From contig OY782392.1 in NCBI GenBank assembly GCA_963677765.1, positions 960,001 to 992,000 of the forward strand: a DNA stretch of 32,000 nt, in the 5' to 3' direction. Origin of the DNA: Candidatus Saccharimonadota bacterium. Lineage in GTDB: Bacteria; Patescibacteriota; Gracilibacteria; BD1-5; UBA6164. Shown piece after piece: positions 5,903 through 31,957 of this stretch. Positions within the stretch are counted from its first letter, which is position 1, and each line of letters opens with the position of its first letter. A program made the position numbers and the translations under genes. A model generated the notes under the pieces. That model saw only the letters and a list, made by a program, of their open reading frames with translations, made no database searches and was not told where the DNA came from.

Positions 5903-5927
5903 ACCCCTTACTTTTTTAGTAAGGGGT
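5903..5927 (-). terminator. Intrinsic terminator of the glucosaminidase gene
   Basis: 9-bp G/C-containing stem accccttac / gtaaggggt with a 7-nt loop, followed on the minus strand by a U-rich tract (tattttttattg). It is 6 nt after the stop at 5933-5935. Confidence 0.6.
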
Positions 5928-5932
5928 TTATA

Positions 5933-6427
5933 TTAGTTTTGAGCATATAGTATTTTATTTAAGTCATAAGAATTTAATTTACAACTTTTTATTACACTCA
6001 AAACTTTTCTAGAGTATTTAGGATCTTCAGCATAATAACCTGCATATGAATTTATTATTTTTGGCAGGTTATAACTTTCTGATTCCAGAGTTTCTCTTAG
6101 TTTTCTATATGCATTATGATTACTTAGATTGACGAAATATGCTTCTACATTTTCTTCAACTGAATCATAAGTCATTATTTTATTTTGAGAACTCATCCCA
6201 AAATGATTATTTTGTTTTCTTGCTGCACGACTTTTACCATAGCCAGTTTCTAATATCGCTTGCGCAATTATAATAGAGTTCGGCATATTATCTGCTACCA
6301 CTCCATCTATATTTTGTCTTGTATCTTCTATTATAGAGTTCATGTAGTCAATATATTCATCATTACATGAATATGCTGCACTTGAAAACATCATAATTAG
6401 AATAGCTATTATAGTTGTTTTTTTCAT
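5933..6427 (-). CDS. Secreted glucosaminidase-family (FlgJ C-terminal / Bax-like) peptidoglycan hydrolase, 164 aa
   Basis: Open under the standard code (track ORF). Signal peptide MKKTTIIAILIMMFSSAAYSC (possible lipoprotein Cys). Core IIIAQAILETGYGKSRAARKQNNHFGM matches the AQAxLESGWGxS...NNxFG glucosaminidase pattern. AGGAG SD at 6442-6438, 10 nt before the ATG. No TGA codons; all 5 Gly are GGN. Confidence 0.8.
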   Translation of the reverse strand: MKKTTIIAILIMMFSSAAYSCNDEYIDYMNSIIEDTRQNIDGVVADNMPNSIIIAQAILETGYGKSRAARKQNNHFGMSSQNKIMTYDSVEENVEAYFVNLSNHNAYRKLRETLESESYNLPKIINSYAGYYAEDPKYSRKVLSVIKSCKLNSYDLNKILYAQN

Positions 6428-6550: not shown

Positions 6551-7066
6551 TTAAAAATCCATATGTGATTTTGAGGAAATTATACCATTTCATTCACTAT
6601 ATTTTCATTTGTAAATATCTATTTCTCATTTTGTTTCCCAGAAACTTACTTGTCATATTTTCATACCTGGATAAATTTTTACAGGAAGAGTGGCAAATAA
6701 TTGTAAAGTTGAGTTTCCATAGTATCATGTATCAATCAAATCAGCAGTTATATGTATAAATAATCATAATCTTGCTACTCATGATTTATTATGAATTAGG
6801 GGAGTATATTTCGTACTTCAAAATTTTTCTTTAGTAGAGGCTAATACAAATTCTCATCTTTCTAATAATAATCATTCTTCTGGTATGTTAATTATTTCAT
6901 ATTCATTATCCTTTTTACTGTCTAAAGTATTATTTTTATATTTTAAAACTTGATTTCATAACCTAACATCGTAAGAGTTTGTATTTATATTAGATTCATC
7001 AAAGTTTTCTATTTTTATATTTCAAGAATTAACTTCTTTTATTATTTCTTTTCAGGTTAATATCAT
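6551..7066 (-). CDS. dCTP deaminase/dUTPase-family paralogue B (171 aa) with Gln at the presumed catalytic Glu position
   Basis: ATG 7066-7064, TAA 6553-6551, 516 nt. MILTGKEIIKEV...NTNSYDVRLG...NKSGVARLGLFIHITADLIDTGYYGNSTLQLFATLPVKIYPGMKIGQVSFWE follows the Dcd pattern. The TLE motif reads TLQ (CAA at 6703-6701). Confidence 0.8.
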
Positions 7067-7072
7067 ATTTTT

Positions 7073-7573
7073 TTATTTAATAAGTAATGACTCTTGTGGT
7101 TTTGAGAAATTTTTATAATTTCATTGATATAATTCAGCATCTCATTTTTTATCCCAAAATGAAACTTTTCATGCTATCATTCATGGATATACAATTACAT
7201 CTTTTGTAGGGTATATTTCTAATGTCCAACTATGAGATGTTCATATATGTCACATATTTGCTGATAATTGCATAAATAGTCATAATCTTCACATGTCAGA
7301 ATTTCATATAAGAGAACTCATAAATTTTGTACTACCTATATTTTCTATTGTAACTCAGAGATACATATAACCCTTTTTTAGAGTATATCATGTTTCTGGT
7401 ATTTCAACATCTTTGAATATTGGTTTTTCTCAATCAAATCAATCATATACTTTTAGATGACTAGCTAATCTATAGTTATAACTATTGGTATTCAATTGTT
7501 TTATATCAAATGGTTCTATTGTTAGATTACCATTTTTTATTTCTTTAATAATTTGTTTTCAACTTAAAATCAT
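7073..7573 (-). CDS. dcd: dCTP deaminase-family paralogue A (166 aa)
   Basis: ATG 7573-7571, TAA 7075-7073, 501 nt. MILSGKQIIKEIKNGNLTIEPF...NTNSYNYRLA...GNSDMGRLGLFMQLSANMGHIGTSHSWTLEIYPTKDVIVYPGMIAGKVSFWD. The conserved Glu is retained (GAA at 7219-7217). Confidence 0.85.
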
Positions 7574-7698: not shown

Positions 7699-8052
7699 TT
7701 ATTTTAAAAATGCTTTAGAGCTTCATTCTATATCTTCTAAATCATTAGCTAATGAACCAAGTAAATCTTCAGTTCATAATGTAATTTCATTATTTCTAGC
7801 ATAATTTTCTATTTCTTGTCTAAGCTCTTTTATAATATCATGAGCTCTTTGTTTTTTTTCTTCTAAGCTAGAACTTTCTAATTCACCACCTAAATCAGCA
7901 TGTTTTTCACCTATTTTATGAGCAACTTCAAACAATGTTTCATAGAAACCTTCATTTTCTTTATGAAAATCTGCGTCTTTAGTTTTTGTATCAATATGGA
8001 TTGTGAACATTTCAAGATATGCTTTTAAAGCTTTTTTATGTAATTCTTTCAT
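7699..8052 (-). CDS. Short ferritin-like / Dps-like four-helix-bundle protein (117 aa)
   Basis: Track ORF 7774..8052 continues through TGA to TAA at 7701-7699 (354 nt). HIDTKTKDADFHKENEGFYETLFEVAHKIGEKHADLGGE and the C-terminal GTEDLLGSLANDLEDIEGSSKAFLK resemble Dps helices (fHW..G..F..lHe.fe..y......D.iAERi..LGG ; D..t.dll...l.e.ek..W.l.a.L). Shorter than typical Dps, so the family call is tentative. Confidence 0.5.
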
Positions 8053-8141: not shown

Positions 8142-9197
8142 TTAGTCAAAAAGATCTATTATATTTTTTATAGAGTATTCTATTTTTCAATGATCTTTTA
8201 ATTCTATAAGAATAACAGGAATTTTATATTTTTCATATATATATGTTTCCATAGTTCAAGTGTATTCTCATATTCATCATTCATCTATTTCATATAATTT
8301 TATTTTGTTTTGTTTTTGTTCTGAGTTTAAATAATTTGTATCAAAATCATATCATGGTAGTTTCTCTGCTATTTCATTTCAAAACTTAATAACATTATCA
8401 TCATCAAAAGAATTATCTGGTAAAAATAGTATATTTCATTTAGAATGAAGTGATATTATTTTTTTGAAGTTATAATTTTTTATTAGATCAGTTATTATTT
8501 TTGTTTCTATTTGATCATTACATCAATTTATTCAAGTAAGTACTGTATATCAGTTTTTTTCAAAACTTTTTAGTTCATAATTTCTAGTACAAAAATTTCT
8601 ATTTAGATCTACATTATTTTTATTTACTCTTCATTCAAGGTAGGCAGCATATTTTTTATCACTTTCTAAATAATACTCTAATCAATCAGGATTAATTGTA
8701 GGAATAATAAACCATCATGTTTTTTCACTATTATATAATTCTTTTAATAGATATCTTGCTGTATTATATGTTCAATACTCATATCATCCATGTATATTAG
8801 AAAAGACTCAAAAATAACCATTTTTTGGATCTCATTTATAATAGGCATATATATCTTGATTATTTTTTGATTCTCAAATCTTAATCTTTTGTATTTTTGA
8901 ATAAAACTCTTTTCTTTCTTCTCTTGTTTTTTCTAGTGAATATTCAAATAATTTTATTAGTTTATTTATTTTTTCTGACTTGTTATTTTTTTGATTTAAT
9001 TTTCTTTTTAGCTCTATATAAGCACTTTCTTTTTTATCAAAATCATTTCACCATTTTTTATTAAAGCTATTGTTTATTATATCATATGCTTGATTAAAAG
9101 AATAATCTTTTCAAGATATATTTATTGTTTCATTAGCAAATGAAACTCATGGAATTATTAGTAAAGTAATTATTATTATTTTTATTCTCTTAAACAT
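8142..9197 (-). CDS. Secreted M14-family zinc carboxypeptidase-like protein (351 aa)
   Basis: ATG 9197-9195, TAA 8144-8142, 1056 nt. Signal peptide MFKRIKIIIITLLIIPGVSFA. Motifs SNIHGGYEYGT, IIPTINPDGLEY, NNVDLNRNF and IISLHSKGN match M14 hallmarks (NPDG, VDLNRNF, third His). The HxxE spacing looks atypical (HGGYE). The start overlaps the rsuA-like stop by 8 nt. Confidence 0.75.
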
Positions 9198-9885
9198 TTT
9201 CTAAATAGTTAATTTCATTTTTATTTAAATATCTCCATTCTCATTCTTTTAAGTCTCAGATATTTATTTCTCATATACTTATTCTATGTAGATTTACAAC
9301 TTCATTTTTTACAGCAATTAACATTTTTTTTACTTGATGAAATTTTCATTCACTTATAGAAAGTTCTATTTTATAATCATTTATTTTTTTTACTTTTGCT
9401 GGTTTAGTTATATAGTCATCTATTTTTAGTCATTTTTCTAGTTTATCTATTGACTTTTGATCTATAACTTCTTTTGTATCAACTATATATTTTTTAAATA
9501 TATCTTTTTTTGAATTTATAACATTATGAATTACTTTTCATTTATTTGTCATTAATATTAATCAAGTTGTATCAACATCTAATCTTCACATAATTTCTAC
9601 TATTTCATCATATGGGCATCATTCTAATAATACCTTACATGATTTATATCAAGCTTCATCAATATTACTTGAAATATAGTTTTTTGGCTTATTTAAAATA
9701 ATATATATATCTTCTATATATTCTAGTTTATATTCTCATATTTGTATTTCATCTCAAATATTTATTTTATATTCTCATGATGTAATTAATTCTCAATTAA
9801 CAAAAACTATATCATTTTTTATATATTTTTTTAATTCTTTTCTACTTCAAAATCAAAGGTTTGATAAATACTTATCTATTCTCAT
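9190..9885 (-). CDS. rsuA: RsuA/RluB-family pseudouridine synthase with N-terminal S4 domain (231 aa)
   Basis: ATG 9885-9883, TAA 9192-9190, 696 nt. MRIDKYLSNLGFGSRKELKKYIKNDIVFVNGE (S4 domain), the catalytic motif GRLDVDTTGLILMTNKGKVIH, and KYIV...EGKFHQVKKM. Confidence 0.85.
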
Positions 9886-10026
9886 TACATTTTTTATTTA
9901 AAATCTATTTTGTTTTTTTATTATACTTAAAATAAAAACCTTATAAAAATATTTATTTAAAAATATTTGACTTTTTAAGAAAATATTTTATTATCTAATC
10001 TCATAAAAGGAGGAAAGGACTGTGAT

Positions 10027-10206
10027 ATGTTGATACTTACTAGAAAAATTGGCGAAACATTTTTCGTAGGAGATGATGTCACTGTAACAGTTTTGTCTGT
10101 AAAAGGTGACCAAGTTCGTATAGGTGTTAATGCACCTAAAGGTGTTACTATCAACAAAGAAGAAACTTATGTTGAAAGGATTAAACGTGCAGATAAAAAA
10201 AGTTAA
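10027..10206 (+). CDS. csrA: Carbon storage regulator CsrA/RsmA (59 aa)
   Basis: [59 protein letters not shown]. About 34 of the first 48 residues match E. coli CsrA as I recall it. The GGA-rich leader aaaAGGAGGAaAGGAc (10004-10019) contains an SD. No TGA; all 5 Gly are GGN. About 33% G+C by hand count. Confidence 0.9.
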
Positions 10207-10222
10207 CTCAGTTCTTATTTGA

Positions 10223-10260
10223 AAGAGAGATATGTAAAAATATCTCTCTTTTTTATTTTT
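10223..10260 (+). terminator. Intrinsic terminator of csrA
   Basis: 10-bp stem aagagagata / tatctctctt with an 8-nt loop, followed by ttttattttt. Confidence 0.7.
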
Positions 10261-10324: not shown

Positions 10325-10618
10325 ATGGCAAAGACTTTTATAGATTGAGCTAGTTCAAAAGCAATAAATGGTCCTTATGGAGAATTTTTTAATATAAGTT
10401 TTAATCTTGAAAAATTACAAGAATATGCTAATGAAAAATGATATGTAAATCTTACTATGAGCAAAAGAAAAGAAGTATGACAATATTGAGATACTCATTA
10501 TTTTACTTTAAATGACTGGAATCCAGAAAATAGTAATAATAATCAAAACTCTTCTCAAGATCAAAATAATACTAATTCTTGAGCATGAGATATTTCAGTT
10601 GAAGATATTCCATTTTAA
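10325..10618 (+). CDS. Small protein with an SSB-like disordered linker and acidic C-terminal tip ..VEDIPF (97 aa)
   Basis: ATG 10325, TAA 10616-10618, 294 nt. MAKTFIDGASSKAINGPYGEFFNISFNLEKLQEYANEKGYVNLTMSKRKEVGQYGDTHYFTLNDWNP, then the N/Q/S-rich linker ENSNNNQNSSQDQNNTNSGAG, then DISVEDIPF. Uses TGA for several Gly. The core does not resemble the canonical SSB OB sequence to my eye. Confidence 0.6.
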
Positions 10619-11719: not shown

Positions 11720-11739
11720 AAGAAGACTTGTCTTCTTTT
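11718..11739. terminator. Bidirectional hairpin between convergent genes
   Basis: aaaagaaga-cttg-tcttctttt overlaps both stop codons (11717-11719 plus, 11740-11738 minus). Confidence 0.5.
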
Positions 11740-13234
11740 ATTTTTTTAATGCATAATCAAATAATTGAATTATAGCTTCTCTTGGTGATTCAGCATCTCT
11801 AACTATAGTTTTTCTATTTATTTTTATACTAACTAATCAGTTGTTTTTTATTACACTAAATATTTTATTCTCATTTCATCTTACTAATCTAGTTTCTTGA
11901 ATACTATTTAACATATTTGAGTATTTTCATTCTTTTAGAACTCTATCTCTAAGAGCTTTTATTATTTCTTTTTCTTCACTTAAAAGATATGTTCATATTA
12001 TCCACATCCAATCTCATCTTTTAGTTGAATTATTTATTGTATCAATAATTTCCTCTCTTATTTTTTCAGGTAGTTTTAATCATTTTTTTACACCTGTTTT
12101 TATATGATCTTTTATTTGATTTATACTTTCTTCTACTTCTTCGCAGTTTTCTTTTACTTTTGAATATCTTTTCATAACTTTTTCTTCAAAATGATATCAT
12201 TTTTCTAAAAAATATATCCTGTTTAATTGTTGATTTAGATATCTGTTAACTATTTTTCTTAAATCTTCATTTGTATATGGTTGTTCATCAGATCTTAAAA
12301 AAGCTTTTAATTGTCTATGTAGTATAAAATCTAGATATCTTCTCATAGGAGAAGTAAAATGAGTATAATTATCTTCTTTTAATCAAAAATGATATTCCAT
12401 TTTATTTGAATAATAAGCTCTTTCTAATTGTTTTGGTGTATAATCTTTTCATTTTAATCATACCATATGATTTCTATAAACTCATGTTTCTGGGTAGTTT
12501 ATCATTTGAAATTTTGCTGTTTCAACATTTGCGGCAACCATGAACTCTTCTATAAGTCTAGATGCTATATTTTTTCAGTTTAGATTATCTTTTTATATTC
12601 ATCTTTCTGCTTCATCAAATTCTATTATTCATTTTGATAATCTTTTTTCTCTTAGTTTTTTTGCTATTTCATCTTGAAGTCTAAGTTGCTCATGGAAAGG
12701 ACTTTCTTCATAAAAATATTGATCTCTAAATTCTTCATAATCAAATCTTTTTCTATTTATAAATTTTGATTCATAGAAACTTGAATTAATAACATTCATT
12801 TGATTATCATAATCTATTTGTACTGTTTGTGATAATCTACTTGTTTGATCATTTAGAGAAATTATATCTGTTGCAAGTTCTCTAGGTAGCATATAGATAG
12901 TTTTTTCCTCACCTAAATAAATACTAGTTCATTTGTTCATAGCATCTATATCTATAGGGGATAGTATTGGTATAAATTCTGTAGGGTCAGCTATTGATAT
13001 AAAAATAGTATATCATCAGTCTTTTCTTTTTTCTGCCCAAATTCAATCATCTAGGTCTTTACTTTCTCTTGCATCTATTGTTATTCATTCAATTAGTTTT
13101 CTAGAAGGAGCTTGATCATTTATTCCGTTTTTTAATATATCTCTAACTTGATTTTTAGTCTCATTTGTATATCAAAATGGTAGACCAGAATTAATTCTAG
13201 GTATCAGATTATCTGGAAAGTTTTCTAATCTCAT
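11738..13234 (-). pseudogene. RNase II/R-family (RNB domain) exoribonuclease interrupted by a single in-frame TAA at codon 214
   Basis: ATG 13234-13232, terminal TAA 11740-11738, 1497 nt in one frame. RNB motifs lie on both sides of the internal TAA (12595-12593). Upstream: ITIDARESKDLDDGIWAE, ISIADPTEF, TSIYLGEEKTIYMLPRELATDIISLND. Downstream: [47 protein letters not shown]. Local context is ..[25 protein letters not shown].. Lacks the CSD/S1 domains of full-length RNase R. Confidence 0.75.
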
Positions 13235-14729: not shown

Positions 14730-16592
14730 TTATATTATTGAATGATTTTCAAGTGTTTCTATTTGAGATTTATTTAGTATAAGTTTTAGTTCTTCTTTTT
14801 CAATCTCTCTTAGTTTTTCTATATTTCAGTATTTTTTTAATATTTTAGCTCTAGTTTTTGGTCAAAATCAAGGTAATTCATCAAGTATATTTTTTTTCAT
14901 TGATTTTATTCTTGAATCTCTATTAAATGTTATAGCAAATCTATGAGCTTCATCTCTTATTTTTTGTACCAATCTAAGTTCACTAGAGTTTCTTTCTAGC
15001 ATTATTAATTCAAAAATTCAATCTTTGAATATAAATAACTCTTCTTCTTTTTTAGCTAATCATACAAGCTGTAAGTCTTTTAATTTTCCCACTTTTTCTA
15101 TATTTTGATTAACTATTTCTAATACACTTGATAATTGTCATTTTCATCCATCAATTATTATTAAGTCTGGTATTTCTCAAGTTTTTTCTATCTCTTTTAT
15201 TCTTCTAGTCATTATTTCTCTCATAGAATCAAAGTCATTAATTTTTTGTTCTTCTAGAGTTTTTATTCTGAACTTTTTATATTTACTTGTATTACTTTTA
15301 CCATTTTCAATTATACTTCTACTCGCAACTGTATGATTTCATGATATATGACTAATATCATTACATTCAAATATTATATCTTTGTTTATTTGTTCGTATC
15401 AAAGTGAATCTAAAATATTTATCATAGTTTTTTTACTAAATCACTTAGTTGATAAAGAATTTATATGGTCTTTATAGGCATATTCATAAATATTTTTATA
15501 ACAAAGTGACAATAAATCACTTTTTACTCATATTTTTGGTGCTTGAGTTTTTATATCAATATTTCAAAAATTTATTTCAAAAGGTATAAGATATATTATT
15601 TTGTTATTAACTTCATTTGAATAAATTTTTTCTATAAAGCTTTTTATAACTTCTGTTTTATCTTCATCCAATGAATTTTTAATTTCATAATTATAAAATC
15701 AAACTATTTTAGAATCTTTAATTTCTATCATTCATATATAAAATTTATCAAATTTTTCTATATAATTTATAACATTATAGTCTCACTCTACTCAATCTCT
15801 TACTATTTGATTTTGTTCCAATGATTTTATAGATTCAAGATTTTCTTTTAGTTTTTGAGCTTCTTCGAATTTTAATTCTTTAGCTTTATTAAACATTTCA
15901 AGCTCAAGCTCTTGTTTTATTTTAGATGTATTTCATTTAAGAAAATCAGATATTTGTTCAATTTTTTGTTTGTATTCTTTTATTTTTGATAGAGATTTTA
16001 AACATGGTCAGCTACATCTTTTTATATAATAGTCCATGCAAGGAATTTTTGTTGTTCAAATATTTCATATTAATAAATTTTCATTTGAAATATTTTCAGA
16101 TTTATTTTTTAGATTAAAAGTTAAATTACAACTTCTGTATCAAAATACTTTTTTTACTAACTTTAATATATTATTAACATAGTTAGTTGATGTATATGGT
16201 CAAAAATAAATAGATCAATCATTTTTTTTGAATCTAGTTTTTATTATTTGTGGTATTAATTCTTTTGTTATTTTTATATATATATGATTTTTACCATCTT
16301 TCATCAATATATTATATTTTGGTTCATGTTTTTTTATTAGAGTTGTTTCCAGTATTAGACTTTCGGTTTCATTATTTGTTAAAATTGTTTTTATATCAAC
16401 AATCTTGTTTACCATTTTTTGTTTGGCAAAATTAAGTTTACTTTTTCAATTAAAATAAGAATTAACTCTAGATTTTAGATTGACTGATTTTCATATATAT
16501 ATAATATTTCAGTTTTTGTCTATAAACTGATATATTCAAGGATTGTTTGGTAAGTTTTTTAGTATAGATTTTAATTTATTATCTGTTGACAT
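14730..16592 (-). CDS. uvrC: Excinuclease ABC subunit C (620 aa)
   Basis: ATG 16592-16590, TAA 14732-14730, 1863 nt. GIY-YIG domain [30 protein letters not shown]...ESLILETTLIKKHEPKYNILMKD, a UVR-like helix ELEMFNKAKELKFEEAQKLKENLESI, the endonuclease region ECNDISHISGNHTVASRS and PDLIIIDGGKGQL, and a C-terminal HhH. Confidence 0.9.
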
Positions 16593-16644
16593 TTTTTTTA
16601 ATTCTTTATTATATTAATCCACAAAATTAGAAAAAGGAGTTTAT

Positions 16645-16764
16645 ATGTCAGAAAATCCATATGATTATTTAGCAGGATTTTTAGTTTTGATGTTTTTTAT
16701 CTTTGTGCTACCATCTAGTTATAATATAATATCAAAAGCTTACTCATATATAAAAAATAAATAA
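16645..16764 (+). CDS. Possible small membrane peptide (39 aa)
   Basis: MSENPYDYLAGFLVLMFFIFVLPSSYNIISKAYSYIKNK. AGGAG at 16635-16639, 5 nt before the ATG (one of only four SD sites in the window). Single TM segment, TAA stop. Short, so uncertain. Confidence 0.35.
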   Translation: MSENPYDYLAGFLVLMFFIFVLPSSYNIISKAYSYIKNK

Positions 16765-27360: not shown

Positions 27361-30234
27361 ATGCAAAAAATTTATAAAATATTGGCAATATTAATGATAT
27401 TTTTTGTAGGTATTTTTCCTATAACGAATACATTTACTGCTGATTATACATGATACAATGTCTCTCCCGACATGGAAAATGTTCCATATCAAAATAAACT
27501 TGATTTATTTTTAAATAAAGTTTTAGAGTCTAGAAAAGATTTTACTAGTGAAAGAAATTATTTGGTTTTTGTTTCTAAAATAGAAACTAAATTAAATAAT
27601 CTTAATTCTAGTTATTCATGAAATGAAGAAATTAAACAAATGCTTGTTTATTTAGAAGAATGAATTAAAAATATTAGAAATATATCTAATCAAAATTGAG
27701 AATTAGATGACTTTTTTTGTGAATTATTCTGAGATTGTGATAATGTTAGTTGATCAACTATTGATAATTCATCTAGTACGGTTTCTACAGATACAAACAC
27801 AAATACAAGTAATAACAATAATTCTAATACAAATAATAATATAAATAGTTGTAAATGATATTGGGATAAACAATGAGGTGATATATTTTTAAGTGTAAAA
27901 AGTGACACTCCTGTTTTGGTTAAAAATAATATAAAAATAGATACTAGTAAACAATGTTTAGATTTATGTTTACAATCTTGATGAAGTAGTAATGAAAGAA
28001 AAGTTTGTGAGTTTAATTGACAAATAATTAAAAATGTAAGCACTAACACAAATACAAATACTAATACTAATACTAATACTAATACTAATACTAATACTAA
28101 TACTAATACTAATACTAATACTAATACTAATACTAATACTAATACTAATACTAATACTAATACTAATACTAATACTAATACTAATACTAATACTAATACT
28201 AATACTAATACTAATACTAATACTAATACTAATACTAATACTAATACTAATACTAATACTACAGAATATAATTATTTAAAATATTTATGAGTTAAATCAT
28301 ATAGTTGATGAGATTTTGATACTTTCAAGGTTAATATAAATTGATTTGAAGGTTGTAGTATATATAACTGTAGTTGATCAAGTGTTCCTACAAGAAATGA
28401 AAACTGAACTATAATAAGTTCATGTAATTGAACTACATCTACTAGTTGAGCAGAAAATAAATCTTTTGATAAGGAATTTATAGATACACAAAGAAGTAAT
28501 GATAATTATATTTCTATTCAATGTTACAGAGAATCATATATGAAGGATTGAAAAAAATATTATCAAACTAGCTCATGAGAATATATTTTAAATCCAACTA
28601 AAATTAGTGATATAAAAAGATCTCAAATTAACTTTAGTTGATTATCACAACCAACAAACACTTCAAATACTAATACAAATACAAACACAGATACAAATAC
28701 AAACACAGATACAAATACTAACACAGATACAAATACTAACACAAATACTAACACAAATACTAACACTAACACAAACTCTAATACTAATACTAATTCAACT
28801 GAAAGAGTTTTATCTTCATGATTTTGAAAAGTTGTTGAATATTATACTTGTTGAACTACTGAAACATGACCAAGTAAGAGAACTTATTTCTTTGATAAAG
28901 AAAAATGGGATTCTAGAAGTTCAGGTTCTATAGATGGTTCTAAATGACCTTGGATGAGTTGTGATTCTTGTTCATCTAGTTCTTCAGCTAATACACTTTG
29001 TTGAAATGATAAAATAACTGAATCAAGTAATGATTCATATACTAATATTTCTACTTCTCAAACATCAGTTAATATATCAAAAGAAACAGTTCCTAATTGA
29101 TGAGGTATAGTTACTTTGTATTGATATATTAAATCATGAGATAGTTGTAGATTATCATACTCTACTAAATGATCATGATGATCTAATTGATTAGTTGCAT
29201 GAAGAACTTTTTCTGCTACATACTTTGTTACTTCTAGTAGTTCTATAAGTGTAAATTGTAGTTCAAATAACTATAATTTTAAATTTATAGAAGAATGAGT
29301 TACAGGCGTTATGTGTGAATGATGAGAAAGTATTTGATGACATCAAATGACTGCATGAGAAAAATGATCTGTTGTAGAAAAAGTATTAGTTACATCAGAT
29401 TCTAAATGATATTATAGACAAACAACAAGCTTTAGATGTAATAATAACTTAACTTGGGAAATGGTTTCTTGAACTCAAGTTAAAAAATATACTAGTTGTA
29501 AAAGCTGATATACTTTATCTTGAACAAGCTGTATAATTTCAAGTTCTACTAGTACTCAATCTTCTTGATGAACAACTAATACTTCTAACACTGAAGAAAA
29601 ATTATGTTATATATATAAGTCTAATAATAATTGAACAACTTCAAGTATGGAAAGATGGTTGAGAACTAAATCTTACTGTGAAAATGAATGTAATAAAGCT
29701 GATACATCTTATACTTGTAAATGGGGTGATTCTGTAATCAGAAATTGAGTTAGTAGTTCTAAAACATTTTCACAAGCAGAAGTAAATACTTATGTTTACA
29801 ATGTATGATTGAGTAGTTATTATACTATTGCTACTGCTGTAAAAACTTTTGAATCACAATGATATACTTGAGTAAGATCACAAGTTGCTACCGCTATTTG
29901 ATTAAGTGAATCAGATGTAACTTGATATATTAATTGAATAAATTCAGGTACTATAAAAAAAGCAAATAATGATTTAAATTGTAGTATTGCAAAAGATCAA
30001 ATTTGAAGACTTTATTATAATGCATGAAGATGTCCTGATACATGATGATATAATTATTGGAAATGAGAACTATCAAAGTCTTCAATAACAGAAGTTACTA
30101 CACATTTTAACTGAGCTCTAGCTAGAGATTGCTTAGAGAAAACTTGAACAACTGATAAAACTATTTGTTTTAATAAAATGTTTTGTCCAACTTGATATAC
30201 TTATATTCCAAGAACTGACTCTTGTAGTAAATAA
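27361..30234 (+). CDS. Large secreted Cys-rich protein with three Thr/Asn(Asp) low-complexity linkers (957 aa)
   Basis: ATG 27361, TAA 30232-30234. The frame was checked codon by codon from 28261 to the end. Signal peptide MQKIYKILAILMIFFVGIFPITNTFTA. Dozens of Cys with recurring C-x2-GY-x6-C-like elements (SCKSGYTLSGTSC, FCPTGYTYIPRTDSC). Many N-x-S/T sites. No family recognised. Confidence 0.75.
28057..28260 (+). repeat. Perfect hexanucleotide microsatellite (AATACT)x34, in frame = (Asn-Thr)34
   Basis: 204 nt with no deviation from the 6-nt unit. Starts in phase with the ORF (28057-27361 = 696). Preceded by imperfect ACT AAC ACA AAT ACA units. Confidence 0.95.
28654..28800 (+). repeat. Imperfect Thr-Asn/Asp dipeptide repeat (degenerate ACN AAY/GAT units)
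   Basis: aca aac act tca aat act aat aca aat aca aac aca gat aca ... aat act aat tca act. 49 codons, same dipeptide theme as 28057-28260 but with many synonymous and N/D substitutions. Confidence 0.8.
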
Positions 30235-30259
30235 AAAAACACCTTTTATAGGTGTTTTT
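30235..30259 (+). terminator. Intrinsic terminator of the 957-aa gene
   Basis: aaaaacacct-tttat-aggtgttttt immediately after the stop. Confidence 0.65.
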
Positions 30260-30268
30260 TTGTAAAAT

Positions 30269-30297
30269 AAAAAGCCACTTATTATAAGTGGCTTTTT
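30269..30297 (-). terminator. Intrinsic terminator of the 63-aa gene
   Basis: Perfect 13-bp arms aaaaagccactta / taagtggcttttt with a 3-nt loop, 19 nt after the stop at 30316-30318. Confidence 0.65.
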
Positions 30298-30315
30298 AAG
30301 ATCAACGGATAAAAC

Positions 30316-30507
30316 TTATACTTTTATCCCTTGATCTCTTAGCTCTTGCTCATAGATTCTTTTTCTCTCTTCAGGATTTGGGATGTCTTGTTTGAAACTT
30401 CTACCTGTAGCTTCTTGGTATTTTTTGTTGTGACGATCCTTCCAGTGAGAGAATTTATTCCAGTTGCTTTGCAGACCTAGGTCCTCTTTTGTTTGCGAGT
30501 CGAGCAT
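30316..30507 (-). CDS. Hydrophilic 63-aa protein of unknown family in a self-contained expression cassette
   Basis: Track ORF MLDSQTKEDLGLQSNWNKFSHWKDRHNKKYQEATGRSFKQDIPNPEERKRIYEQELRDQGIKV. AGGAG at 30519-30515, 7 nt before the ATG. About 39% G+C (75 of 192 by hand count). No TGA; uses codons rare elsewhere in the window (CTC, GAC, TCG, CTG). Confidence 0.7.
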   Translation of the reverse strand: MLDSQTKEDLGLQSNWNKFSHWKDRHNKKYQEATGRSFKQDIPNPEERKRIYEQELRDQGIKV

Positions 30508-30555
30508 GATATTTCTCCTTTTTGATTGATGTTTACCCTCATGTGGGTATTATCT

Positions 30556-30585
30556 ATTATATATGAATTATCCTTGATTTGTCAA
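30556..30585 (-). promoter_or_regulatory. Near-consensus sigma70 promoter for the 63-aa gene
   Basis: Minus strand TTGACA (30585-30580), an 18-nt spacer, then TATAAT (30561-30556). Alternatively a 16-nt spacer to TATATA. Predicted 5' UTR of about 40 nt containing a short stem tacccacatgagggta. Confidence 0.55.
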
Positions 30586-30661
30586 TTTTTTATTAAAAAT
30601 TACTTCTTTACTTTTGAGTATTAATTTTTATTATTATTGTAATATTTAATAATCTAAGTAG

Positions 30662-31957
30662 ATGAAAAAAATTTATTTAATAGATTGAAATAGTTTTATA
30701 TATCGTATGTTTTTTGCTCTTCCAGAGTTTTCAACTACTGATTGAAAAATTGTTAATGCTTTATTTTGAATGGCTAAATTTTTTGTTTCAACATTGGTTA
30801 AAGAGAATCCAGATTATGTTGTTTTTGTTAAAGATGCAAAATGAGAAAATTTTCGTCATAAATTATATAGTGATTACAAAGCTACTAGAGATAGAATGCC
30901 AGATAACTTGAGATCTCAAATCATCGATATAGAGGAAATGATATCAAAAATGAATATTGATATTATTGAAATACCTTGATATGAAGCTGATGATGTTATA
31001 GGTACTCTTGCAACTGATCTTTGAAAAGATAAGGATAATGAAGTATATATATTATCAGGTGATAAAGATTTATATAGTTTAACAACTGATAATGTATTCA
31101 TTTATGATACAATGAAGAAGAAAACTTATAACTGAGAAAAAACTAGAGAAAAGTTTTGAATAGAATCAAAATTAATAATAGATTATTTAGCTATTGTTTG
31201 AGATAAGGCTGATAATATTCCAGGTATAGATTGATTTTGACCTAAAAAAGCTGTAGATTTAATCAATAATATTTGAACTGTAGAAAATATTTTAAAAGAG
31301 ATAGATTTAGTTGATTCATGAACTAAAACATTTAAAGATTATGATAAATCTATACAATCATGCTTTAAATGAAAAACATTTGAAAAATTAAATAATTCTA
31401 GGGAAGATGCTATATTAAGTAAAAAATTAGCAACTATTGAATTATGAGTTGAATTAGATAATTTTGAATTAGATAAATTTATTTTTAAATGAGATTCTAT
31501 ACTAAATACTGATGTAATTGAGTTTTTTAAAAAATATGAATTTAATTCTTTGTTATGAGATGACCATACAGAAAAATTACTTAACTTTGATGATTTAGGT
31601 CTAAAGGTTAATATAATTGATAACGATGATGAATTGAATAAATTATCAAGTTTAATACAAAAATATAATAGTATAACTCTAGATACTGAAACAACATCTT
31701 TGAATTATATAGAAGCTGAATTAGTATGAGTTTCTATATATCTAGATGATAATAATATTTATTATATAAATCGTTTACATGATTGAAAATCAGTTAGTGA
31801 TAATTCTTTATCTGATTTTTTAAAAAAACTATTAGAGTCTGATATATTGATTGTATGACATAATTTAAAATATGACTTACAAATATTGAATTTATATTTA
31901 GATTGAAACTATAAAAAATATAGTAATATTTCTTGACAAACTAGCTTAGATTTATAA
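30662..31957 (+). CDS. polA: DNA polymerase I N-terminal portion: 5'-nuclease domain plus the first half of the 3'-5' exonuclease domain (431 aa), ending at a TAA before any polymerase domain
   Basis: ATG 30662, TAA 31955-31957. IYLIDGNSFIYRMFFALP, VFVKDAKGENFRHKLYSDYKATRDRMPDNLRSQ, GYEADDVIGTLA, LSGDKDL, VGDKADNIPGIDGFGPKKA, then ExoI LDTETTSL and ExoII VGHNLKYDLQIL. No ExoIII or polymerase motifs before the stop. Only 43 nt of the window follow. Confidence 0.85.

Follow-up and report, generated by a model that had tools for sequence, protein, structure and literature searches.

The stretch of DNA analysed here (the window) comprises 32,000 nucleotides of a gracilibacterium filed as Candidatus Saccharimonadota bacterium (assembly GCA_963677765.1, contig OY782392.1, positions 960,001 to 992,000 of the forward strand), and the subject of this analysis is a small gene within it, csrA, which encodes a member of the CsrA family of RNA-binding regulators. 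The window has a G+C content of 22.3% and can be read sensibly only with UGA as an amino acid (genetic code 25, UGA = Gly); 33 open reading frames (ORFs) were called with TAA and TAG as stop codons. The csrA gene is located between a gene for an RsuA-like enzyme and a gene whose product resembles single-stranded-DNA-binding proteins (SSB), and it is accompanied by its own set of expression signals:

9190 to 9885, minus strand: rsuA-like gene for a 16S pseudouridine synthase (Pfam S4 and PseudoU_synth_2), the divergently oriented left flank
9967 to 9994, plus strand: promoter-like sequence of the sigma-70 type, TTGACT-16-TATTAT, 10 of 12 consensus positions
10008 to 10019, plus strand: Shine-Dalgarno (SD) or GGA-rich leader, AGGAGGAAAGGA, 7 nucleotides ahead of the csrA ATG
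10027 to 10206, plus strand: csrA, 59 amino acids, TAA stop, free of TGA, with N43, K44 and T47 in place of H43, R44 and I47
10221 to 10252, plus strand: intrinsic terminator of csrA with a 13-bp stem, a 6-nucleotide loop and a T-run
10325 to 10618, plus strand: SSB-like gene of 97 amino acids, the right flank of the csrA site, with the C-terminus ...EDIPF

A first-pass annotation, made from the letters of the sequence alone, had proposed a 59-amino-acid CsrA at this position, and the family models agree. The protein matches the Pfam family CsrA (PF02599) with an E-value of 5.9e-20 and 71.4 bits (cut-off 27) and passes the cut-offs of both NCBIfam equivalog models, namely NF002469 with 87.3 bits (73) and TIGR00202 with 77.6 bits (70.1). 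In addition, CsrA and RsmA chains of the PDB align with it end to end over residues 1 to 56 (E 8e-20, about 1e-19). Within the first 48 residues it is identical to E. coli CsrA at 34 positions, exactly the number which the annotation had given, and to B. subtilis CsrA at 23. The proposed proximity to the E. coli type rather than the Bacillus type is also seen in the PDB scores, which amount to 70–72 bits for the E. coli, Pseudomonas and Yersinia proteins versus 46–54 bits for those of Bacillus and Geobacillus. The N-terminal MLILTR, the GDD, the VTVL strand and the EE-Y motifs are shared with gammaproteobacterial CsrA and, with 59 residues, no FliW-binding C-terminal extension and a closer similarity to the gammaproteobacterial proteins, the window protein belongs to the short gammaproteobacterial subtype.

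An identical CsrA protein is encoded on 15 contigs. The analysis covered ten of them, each stemming from its own sequencing run or assembly, and an eleventh contig that carries a 98% identical variant (T47I). All eleven show the same junctions, with the rsuA-like gene on the minus strand followed by csrA (plus), the 97-amino-acid gene (plus) and a gene of 114 amino acids (minus), and on all of them csrA is flanked by code-25 DNA of 20–23% G+C. The local rise in G+C and the switches in GC skew had raised the concern that an assembly chimera or a contaminating proteobacterial fragment might be involved. Identical junctions in eleven independent contigs, which derive from no fewer than ten sequencing runs or assemblies, and also in sister species, rule this out, and the host-like character of the flanks, of the third codon positions of csrA and of its use of pyrimidine-ending codons is likewise inconsistent with a foreign fragment, so that the probability of such an artefact is negligible.

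For the comparison between genomes the rsuA-like gene, all 16 Gly codons of which are TGA, served as synteny anchor. Its homologues in Gracilibacteria form a smooth series with 90, 73, 72, 68, 66, 61, 60 and 59% identity. Among the matches listed by a scan of contigs with the RsuA alignment, nine code-25 loci were usable; the search patterns contained a Gly/Trp column, and many Gracilibacteria, including the window's own genome, were missed. Besides the window species, four lineages (designated by L numbers) carry csrA at this site:

L025/L026/L030 (GCA_041694155.1): RsuA 73% identical to that of the window
L115: RsuA 72% identical
L114: RsuA 68% identical
L027/L028 (GCA_041642635.1): RsuA 66% identical

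In each of them a gene of 59 amino acids is divergently oriented to rsuA and is followed by the SSB-like gene. The order UvrC, h176, TatD, RNB, h195, (h114), SSB-like, csrA, RsuA, M14 is common to the window, L025/L030 and L027/L028, and csrA adjoins rsuA also on the shorter contigs of L114 and L115. UvrC, measurable only in L025 and L027, is about 78% identical to that of the window in both. The check for presence or absence in sister genomes, which had been suggested in the first-pass annotation, thus gave csrA at the site in four further lineages, and it also gave four outgroups without csrA there. In three of these, L029/L034 (GCA_028698305.1), L048 and L116 (GCA_028689115.1), with RsuA about 59–61% identical and UvrC 69% identical in L029 and L048, the gene order is retained but only an A+T-rich spacer of about 126 bp lies between the SSB-like gene and rsuA, while L033 (GN02-872) has neither csrA nor the SSB-like gene at the syntenic site. 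The simplest history would be that a cassette of about 0.3–0.4 kb was inserted only once, in a common ancestor of the lineages that bear csrA. Because five lineages share this position of csrA although their RsuA proteins are only 66–73% and their UvrC proteins, where measurable, about 78% identical to those of the window, its presence is not recent, and a divergence of 22–34% in these two proteins excludes that the five lineages represent one recently admixed population.

The SSB-like gene is kept beside rsuA across Gracilibacteria. Its product has a low-complexity tail rich in Asn, Ser and Gln and ends with ...SVEDIPF, resembling the acidic tip at the C-terminus of bacterial SSB, and no match to it was found in Pfam, NCBIfam or PHROG. 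The protein is possibly a diverged form of SSB.

The CsrA proteins themselves have changed considerably in the course of this history. The residues of strands beta1 and beta5 that contact RNA are, in E. coli numbering, L2, L4, R6, R7, V40, V42, R44 and I47. The window protein has kept L2, L4, R6 and V40 and has replaced the others (R7K, V42I, R44K, I47T) as well as H43 (H43N), so that its RNA-contact set is only partly conserved. As had been noticed on the first inspection, position 44 is Lys; among the 118 closest database homologues 115 have Arg at this position and none has Lys. R44 is still present in L115, L025, L114 and L027, in all four together with H43 or C43, so that the clade retains this family trait while the window species does so only in part. 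The change at position 44 is therefore specific to the window species and suggests either an altered affinity or a relaxed constraint, and the combination of H43N, R44K, I47T and R7K has probably changed the affinity or the specificity for RNA. In RsmE (PMC4005645), Arg44 either makes a backbone contact or forms a stack with the adenine of A(N)GGAX; with Lys the charge could stay but the stacking could not. Several of the lineage-specific replacements in the window species are A+T-driven (R7K, R44K, H43N, L12F and M13F).

Arg44 of the L025 protein is encoded by CGA. In Absconditabacteria CGA has been reported to be read as Trp, and CGG is possibly reassigned in some Gracilibacteria (PMC8629427); this key residue would read differently if CGA were reassigned in L025.

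A search of 5.8 billion proteins gave, apart from copies of the same species (100% and 98% identity), no CsrA with more than 77% identity to the window protein. The named matches are all gammaproteobacterial (Methylococcales, Pseudomonas, 'Gammaproteobacteria bacterium'), with one entry named 'Pseudomonadota bacterium' as the only exception. Two of the closest unnamed matches (P0003 and P0008) were considered as possible intermediates from the candidate phyla radiation (CPR) and rejected, as their contigs have 41–46% G+C and standard neighbours. The CsrA of L115 is identical to database match P0016, which stands in the same list as the proteins named Gammaproteobacteria, at 49 of 53 positions (92%), and to E. 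coli CsrA at 44 of 53. For L025 the values are 43 of 53 to its best database match and 39 of 48 to E. coli CsrA, and the L025 and L027 proteins likewise score higher against the E. coli, Pseudomonas and Yersinia structures than against those of Bacillus and Geobacillus. Between the lineages the identities are 34 of 53 (window and L025) and 21 of 53 (window and L027), and each of the five proteins is at least as near to a consensus drawn from the 118 closest matches as to its counterparts in the other lineages. An ancestor reconstructed by parsimony, for which this consensus was the outgroup, agrees with the consensus at 46 of 48 positions, a value biased towards the chosen outgroup. E. coli and B. 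subtilis CsrA share 22 of 48 residues.

An identity above 90% between a CPR and a gammaproteobacterial protein of this kind cannot be vertical and points to horizontal transfer. The csrA gene is of the gammaproteobacterial type and most likely entered by this route, and it is a reasonable inference that it came from a gammaproteobacterium, or from a phage or mobile element of one. A phage as vector is plausible: the window protein matches the PHROG family phrog_9500 ('CsrA-like regulator') with 85 bits and an E-value of 4.7e-24, it is 61–69% identical to copies annotated in Providencia, Acinetobacter and Bacillus phages, and CsrA relatives are encoded on eight IMG/VR contigs.

Of the 580 Gly codons in the 33 ORFs of the window, 493 (85%) are TGA, which is slightly more than the 80% first stated for the neighbouring genes. 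As also stated there, all five Gly codons of csrA are GGN (in order GGC, GGA, GGT, GGT and GGT; none of five TGA, binomial P 7.6e-5), and in all five lineages together none of the 22 csrA Gly codons is TGA, versus 78–85% TGA in the surrounding genes. The reported rise in G+C holds as well, with 0.328 for the csrA ORF versus 0.223 for the window. Under host codon usage, however, a value of 0.267 (standard deviation 0.012) would be expected for this protein and 0.333 is observed when the stop codon is left out, so that about half of the excess is due to the amino-acid composition. The G+C content at third codon positions (GC3) is 0.169 and lies inside the range of native genes (0.055–0.177). The csrA gene also makes use of synonymous codons that are unusual here: 4 of 11 Arg codons are CGN, and in three lineages 5 of 12 Gly codons are GGC or GGG, which elsewhere make up 1.6% of the Gly codons. 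These codons are not static, since they switch between lineages (GGC or GGG at Gly9; GGA, GGC or GGG at Gly15). The share of NNC among the pyrimidine-ending (NNY) codons is 0.15 in csrA versus 0.11 in the background (P = 0.24), and as the two are indistinct a classical signature of translational selection can be ruled out.

The predicted expression signals show a similar pattern of conservation. TTGAC(T/A)-16-TATTAT precedes csrA also in L011 (the same species), L025 and L027, and in L115 and L114 a TTGAC box and a TATTAT-like box occupy the same place with other spacing. The GGA-rich SD leader and the intrinsic terminator were both already seen in the first reading. An AAGGAG-type motif is found before csrA in four of the five lineages and GAGGGAG in L115; further downstream in the leader the element AGGACTGT is common to the window and L011, L025 and L115. 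Between positions 9000 and 11500 there are 2 terminator-like sites versus 0.2 expected from shuffled sequence, and in L025, L027, L114 and L115 csrA is likewise followed by a hairpin with a T-run, although the sequences differ. A promoter-like pair of boxes, an SD-type leader and a terminator are hence present in all five lineages, which would be unexpected for neutral G+C-containing motifs in spacers driven towards A+T.

Within the window csrA is the only gene with three GGA motifs in one leader. Three such motifs in its own leader suggest that csrA is autoregulated, which is plausible. When the leaders of four lineages were folded, the z-scores ranged from 0.1 to 1.0 and no hairpin was conserved, ruling out GGA sites that are presented by a hairpin. 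No Rfam family, including small RNAs of the CsrB/RsmZ type, reached the gathering threshold in the 32-kb window; the only signals were sub-threshold noise around 30150 to 30750. The window also contains no tRNA genes, and none of the retrieved loci includes the 3' end of 16S rRNA with its anti-SD.

In the first-pass annotation the absence of TGA, the SD leader and the higher G+C were tentatively taken as features of a standard-code donor that had not yet been ameliorated after a recent transfer. The gammaproteobacterial type of the sequence, the outgroups without csrA at the site and codons that are richer in G+C than those of the host (CGN, GGC, GGG) are all in line with a transfer, and this part of the proposal stands. 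The adjective 'recent' does not, as the cassette lies at conserved synteny in four other lineages of Gracilibacteria, an arrangement which the annotation itself had named as a refutation, and the CsrA proteins have accumulated lineage-specific replacements, several of which (R to K, H to N, L or M to F) follow the A+T drive of the host. The host-like use of pyrimidine-ending codons and the native GC3 also argue against a newly arrived gene.

Nor can the absence of TGA be a leftover of the donor. In orthologues of the neighbouring genes 29–31% of the codons for identical residues differ, to an equal extent in near and far pairs, which indicates saturation under an extreme A+T bias. A conserved Gly encoded by GGN in the window is encoded by TGA in the sister genome in 54–63% of the cases, and the persistence of GGN is flat with distance (0.45 in L025, 0.38 in L027, 0.46 in L029 and 0.37 in L048). 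A persistence of 37–46% without decay points to site-specific preference and not to mutational memory, and the model of csrA GGN codons as relics is thereby ruled out. Since the turnover of Gly codons is saturated, the combination of 0 of 22 TGA codons with the kept signals indicates that these features are maintained by selection. A recent transfer with un-ameliorated donor features is consequently highly improbable. The avoidance of TGA, the SD and the G+C-richer codons of csrA are thus maintained by selection.

A candidate reason for this selection is expression level. CsrA is abundant in model bacteria, and csrA might accordingly be a naturalised, very highly expressed gene in which translational selection accounts for the avoidance of TGA and the raised G+C, and the need for strong initiation for the SD; a native gene of high expression had also been the second proposal of the first-pass annotation. 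As neither the window nor the loci of the clade contain a ribosomal-protein gene, we used the related code-25 lineages L031, L110 and L112 for comparison; the search with L7/L12 gave relatives of L031 only. In L031, with a locus average of 49% TGA, L7/L12 has 0 of 11 and L10 1 of 11 Gly codons as TGA. In L110, with 23.3% G+C and 77% TGA in the locus, the values are 5 of 13 for L10, 5 of 12 for L7/L12, 5 of 13 for S2, 19 of 32 for S1 and 7 of 13 for EF-Ts, and in L112 (locus average 72%) they are 3 of 12 for L10 and 6 of 14 for L7/L12. The ribosomal-protein and EF-Ts genes of L110 and L112 thus have 25–59% TGA (about 40–45%) versus 72–77% in their loci. Across 120 L7/L12 homologues, for many of which the database gives a code-4 translation, W (= TGA) occurs 194 times versus 1148 times for G, and the G+C of ribosomal-protein genes in related code-25 genomes is 0.30–0.33.

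Ribosomal-protein genes consequently share the raised G+C and part of the TGA depletion with csrA. However, the depletion is partial, and at a TGA rate of 0.4 the probability of 0 in 22 is about 1e-5; none of these genes is SD-led; and their codon bias has the opposite direction, with a GC3 of 0.073, 42 of 43 Arg codons AGA, almost no CGN and no GGC in the pooled set, whereas csrA and the glucosaminidase gene described below use CGN, GGC or GGG, and CTG. From these three differences it follows that csrA is not a case of ordinary translational selection, and high expression as the whole explanation is unlikely.

Two further observations were made in the course of this comparison. Database proteins of code-25 organisms (here P0121–P0240 and P0241–P0360) have often been translated with code 4 and show Trp at Gly positions, so that the count of W is usable as a proxy for TGA; the same practice distorts homology searches and alignments for these lineages. 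In addition, a helical protein of 117 amino acids encoded at 7699 to 8052 on the minus strand of the window, possibly Dps- or ferritin-like and with a weak match to DUF5856, shows a pattern like that of the ribosomal proteins, with 2 of 7 Gly codons TGA, 2 of 7 and 3 of 9 in its orthologues of L025 and L028, and no SD.

The csrA gene is not the only one of its kind. A strict scan of the window for SD sequences gave only four SD-led ORFs, all free of TGA and together containing 14 GGN codons, and GGAG-type leaders are confined to these four; elsewhere only four stray single GGAs occur within 45 nucleotides upstream. The other three ORFs, the further copies of one of them and a comparable ORF of an outgroup are:

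5933 to 6427, minus strand: secreted glucosaminidase (PF01832) of 164 amino acids with signal peptide and Cys, leader AAAGGAGAAACC, G+C-rich terminator at 5903 to 5927
30316 to 30507, minus strand: ORF of 63 amino acids, MLDSQTKEDLGLQSNWNKFSHWKDRHNKKYQEATGRSFKQDIPNPEERKRIYEQELRDQGIKV, leader AAAAAGGAGAAATATC / AAAAAGGAG, 0 TGA and 3 GGN codons, GC3 0.40
16645 to 16764, plus strand: hydrophobic ORF of 39 amino acids, a doubtful member, leader AAAAAGGAGTTTAT, with TTGACA-18-TATATT at 16586 to 16615
Glucosaminidase in other lineages: L028 6028 to 6522, L113 2376 to 2858, L048 15297 to 15770, L116 17329 to 17805
L033 (GN02-872), 6870 to 7133, minus strand: ORF of 87 amino acids between uvrC and h176, AGGGAGG leader, 0 of 8 Gly codons TGA, G+C 0.379

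The glucosaminidase (154–164 amino acids) has none of its 32 Gly codons as TGA over five lineages, GGAG or AGGA leaders and codons of the CGN, CTG and GGC types. As it is SD-led and free of TGA also where csrA is absent from this site, the class does not depend on CsrA. Its relatives form a graded family of secreted proteins of about 160 amino acids, from which no donor can be named. The 63-amino-acid ORF is preceded by the only promoter of the window with 12 of 12 consensus positions (TTGACA-18-TATAAT, 30585 to 30556) and followed by terminator hairpins; a spurious ORF of 88 amino acids on the plus strand overlaps it, and no match was found in Pfam, PHROG, or among plasmids or phages. The 39-amino-acid ORF is doubtful because it is absent from L025, and the L033 ORF has no family match.

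These mini-genes look like complete expression units of a standard bacterium that have been kept over long periods. Candidate reasons are selection at the level of the mRNA (stability, or efficient SD-dependent initiation with fast decoding of GGN), or a distinct SD-dependent regulon. A more speculative reason would be that the genes have to stay compatible with a host that uses the standard code, or with shared phages. In its strong form this would mean that the cassettes are kept translatable by a standard-code, SD-using cell because a gammaproteobacterial host expresses them or takes part in their exchange, either directly or via code-11-compatible phages. The near-consensus sigma-70 promoters (12 of 12 for the 63-amino-acid ORF, 10 of 12 for csrA), AGGAGG, the lack of TGA, the TAA stops, the terminators and the shift of codon usage to CGN, CTG and GGC would all fit this. 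Published phages of Gracilibacteria avoid in-frame TGA (PMC10746230), and an association of Gracilibacteria with Colwellia that includes gene sharing has been proposed (PMC6851277). However, a transfer of nucleic acids from CPR cells to their hosts has no known mechanism, csrA keeps to one chromosomal position, with a history that agrees with the species tree, and is hence not under ongoing exchange, it is surrounded by housekeeping genes and not by a mobile element, and the fast divergence of the protein including R44K is unexpected if its targets were conserved ones of the host. Maintenance for a host is therefore very improbable as an explanation. For the whole class, a reading in which the mini-genes are kept readable for a standard-code, SD-using system, since the gammaproteobacterial host of this episymbiont expresses them or continually exchanges them with it, or, in a milder version, form a CsrA-controlled SD-dependent translational regulon in a recoded cell that otherwise does without SD, is only marginally better placed and still a long shot; if the first version were true, the gammaproteobacterial-type CsrA would act on the host and reprogramme its carbon metabolism.

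The explanation that we prefer, with a probability of roughly 0.7, is that a csrA of the gammaproteobacterial type was captured as a complete cassette in the ancestor of one subclade of Gracilibacteria and has been inherited vertically since, its signals being kept by selection. The captured cassette would have been monocistronic, with a sigma-70 promoter, an SD leader, the ORF and an intrinsic terminator, and would have been inserted into the spacer that separates the rsuA-like and the SSB-like genes. The ORF is intact and conserved, and so are the predicted signals for its expression. Most likely CsrA has retained its role as a small dimeric protein that binds RNA at GGA motifs of ribosome-binding sites, and its targets are probably its own mRNA, by autorepression, and a few other SD-led genes; they would be few because the leaders in this genome are nearly devoid of GGA. 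The gene is, on this comparative sequence evidence, a further member of a known family in an unexpected host, and its acquisition appears ancient.

Several points weigh against this explanation. The absence of csrA from the outgroups refers to the syntenic site only, the reconstructed ancestor leans towards its outgroup by construction, and 59 residues do not resolve the donor below the level of 'gammaproteobacterial type'. A key RNA-contact residue is replaced in the window protein (R44K), and in L027 and L114 R31 and further conserved residues are lost, so that the function is maybe weakened or changed there. The csrA leader is predicted to be unstructured and no hairpin presents a GGA; together with the replaced Arg44 and the lack of a CsrB-like RNA in the window, this makes it doubtful that the E. 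coli model can simply be carried over. Finally, the ribosomal-protein comparison comes from other lineages of Gracilibacteria (L031, L110 and L112) and not from the genome of the window, and the glucosaminidase has the same properties in genomes where csrA is absent from the site.

Compared with known systems, the window protein resembles CsrA and RsmA of gammaproteobacteria (E. coli, 1y00; P. aeruginosa RsmA, 1vpz and 7yr6; Yersinia, 2bti) in its length of about 60 amino acids and in the lack of a C-terminal extension, and the gene resembles that of E. coli, as generally known, in having a leader of its own with GGA and SD. In contrast to these, it resides in a genome of 22% G+C with UGA = Gly and few SD sequences, its potential regulon is tiny as leaders with GGA are nearly absent, and it evolves fast whereas the gammaproteobacterial proteins are nearly invariant. 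With the FliW-partnered CsrA proteins (B. subtilis, 1t3o; Geobacillus, 5dmb) it shares the Pfam family and the core fold, but the proteins of Firmicutes have a longer C-terminus, and no fliW or flagellar genes are found near csrA.

The csrA genes of phages and mobile elements (Providencia phage PSTCR8lys, Acinetobacter phage MD-2021a and Bacillus phage Dartukuta) are likewise short accessory genes, and CsrA paralogues linked to integrative and conjugative elements exist in Legionella. With its own promoter and terminator the architecture of csrA resembles a phage 'moron'. Unlike the phage and mobile genes, however, it is flanked by conserved housekeeping genes and chromosomally fixed in the clade; no integrase, att site or phage gene was found in the flanks (rsuA, M14 peptidase, SSB-like, RNB, tatD and uvrC). 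A moron or mobile cassette would fit the origin of csrA but not its current state.

A few strong SD sequences in a genome that is otherwise poor in them, implying special translational control, are also a feature of Bacteroidota, in which rpsU keeps an SD that is used for autoregulation. That case concerns a different lineage and different genes, and we know of no counterpart in Bacteroidota of the link between SD and codon choice, i.e. the avoidance of TGA. The rpsU product bS21 is often missing in Gracilibacteria (PMC9297842). A parallel for the codons comes from Liu et al. 2023 (PMC10746230), who describe code-11-compatible phages in Gracilibacteria and Absconditabacteria. These likewise avoid in-frame TGA systematically, as do many predicted Gracilibacteria phages, while integrated prophages are reported in that paper to be TGA-dense. 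Those are whole genomes, however, whereas here single chromosomal genes have been free of TGA over long evolutionary time.

Some other genes of the window deserve mention. The gene with an RNB domain (RNase II/R-like, 11738 to 13234, minus strand) has a TAA at codon 214, where the same-species assemblies L004 and L011 have TGA (Gly); a single G-to-A change makes the stop, and the gene is either a pseudogene or split in this strain, or the stop is an error of sequencing. An RNB gene lies between tatD and h195 in the csrA-bearing window, L025 and L027, and is missing there in the four outgroups without csrA. It is TGA-rich and native in style, and it may have been gained together with csrA or lost by the outgroups. 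Two tandem paralogues of dCTP deaminase (DCD) are located at 6551 to 7066 and 7073 to 7573 on the minus strand, and the pair is kept in L025. At 27361 to 30234 (plus strand) a secreted Cys-rich protein of 957 amino acids contains (NT)n Asn-Thr tracts of about 45 and 25 units and recalls a hypervariable repeat surface protein of another gracilibacterium (PMC6851277).

The csrA locus shows that a CPR lineage with code 25 can capture and fix a regulator from the standard code, in an event that can be dated by synteny. The class of genes to which csrA belongs pairs a strong SD with full avoidance of the reassigned codon and with G+C-richer synonymous codons, in the direction opposite to that of the ribosomal-protein genes. 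It thereby offers a handle on the cost or error of decoding UGA as Gly and on the question of whether recoded episymbionts keep genes compatible with the translation systems of their hosts. The predicted regulon of CsrA would be very small and could be enumerated from the few leaders that bear GGA.

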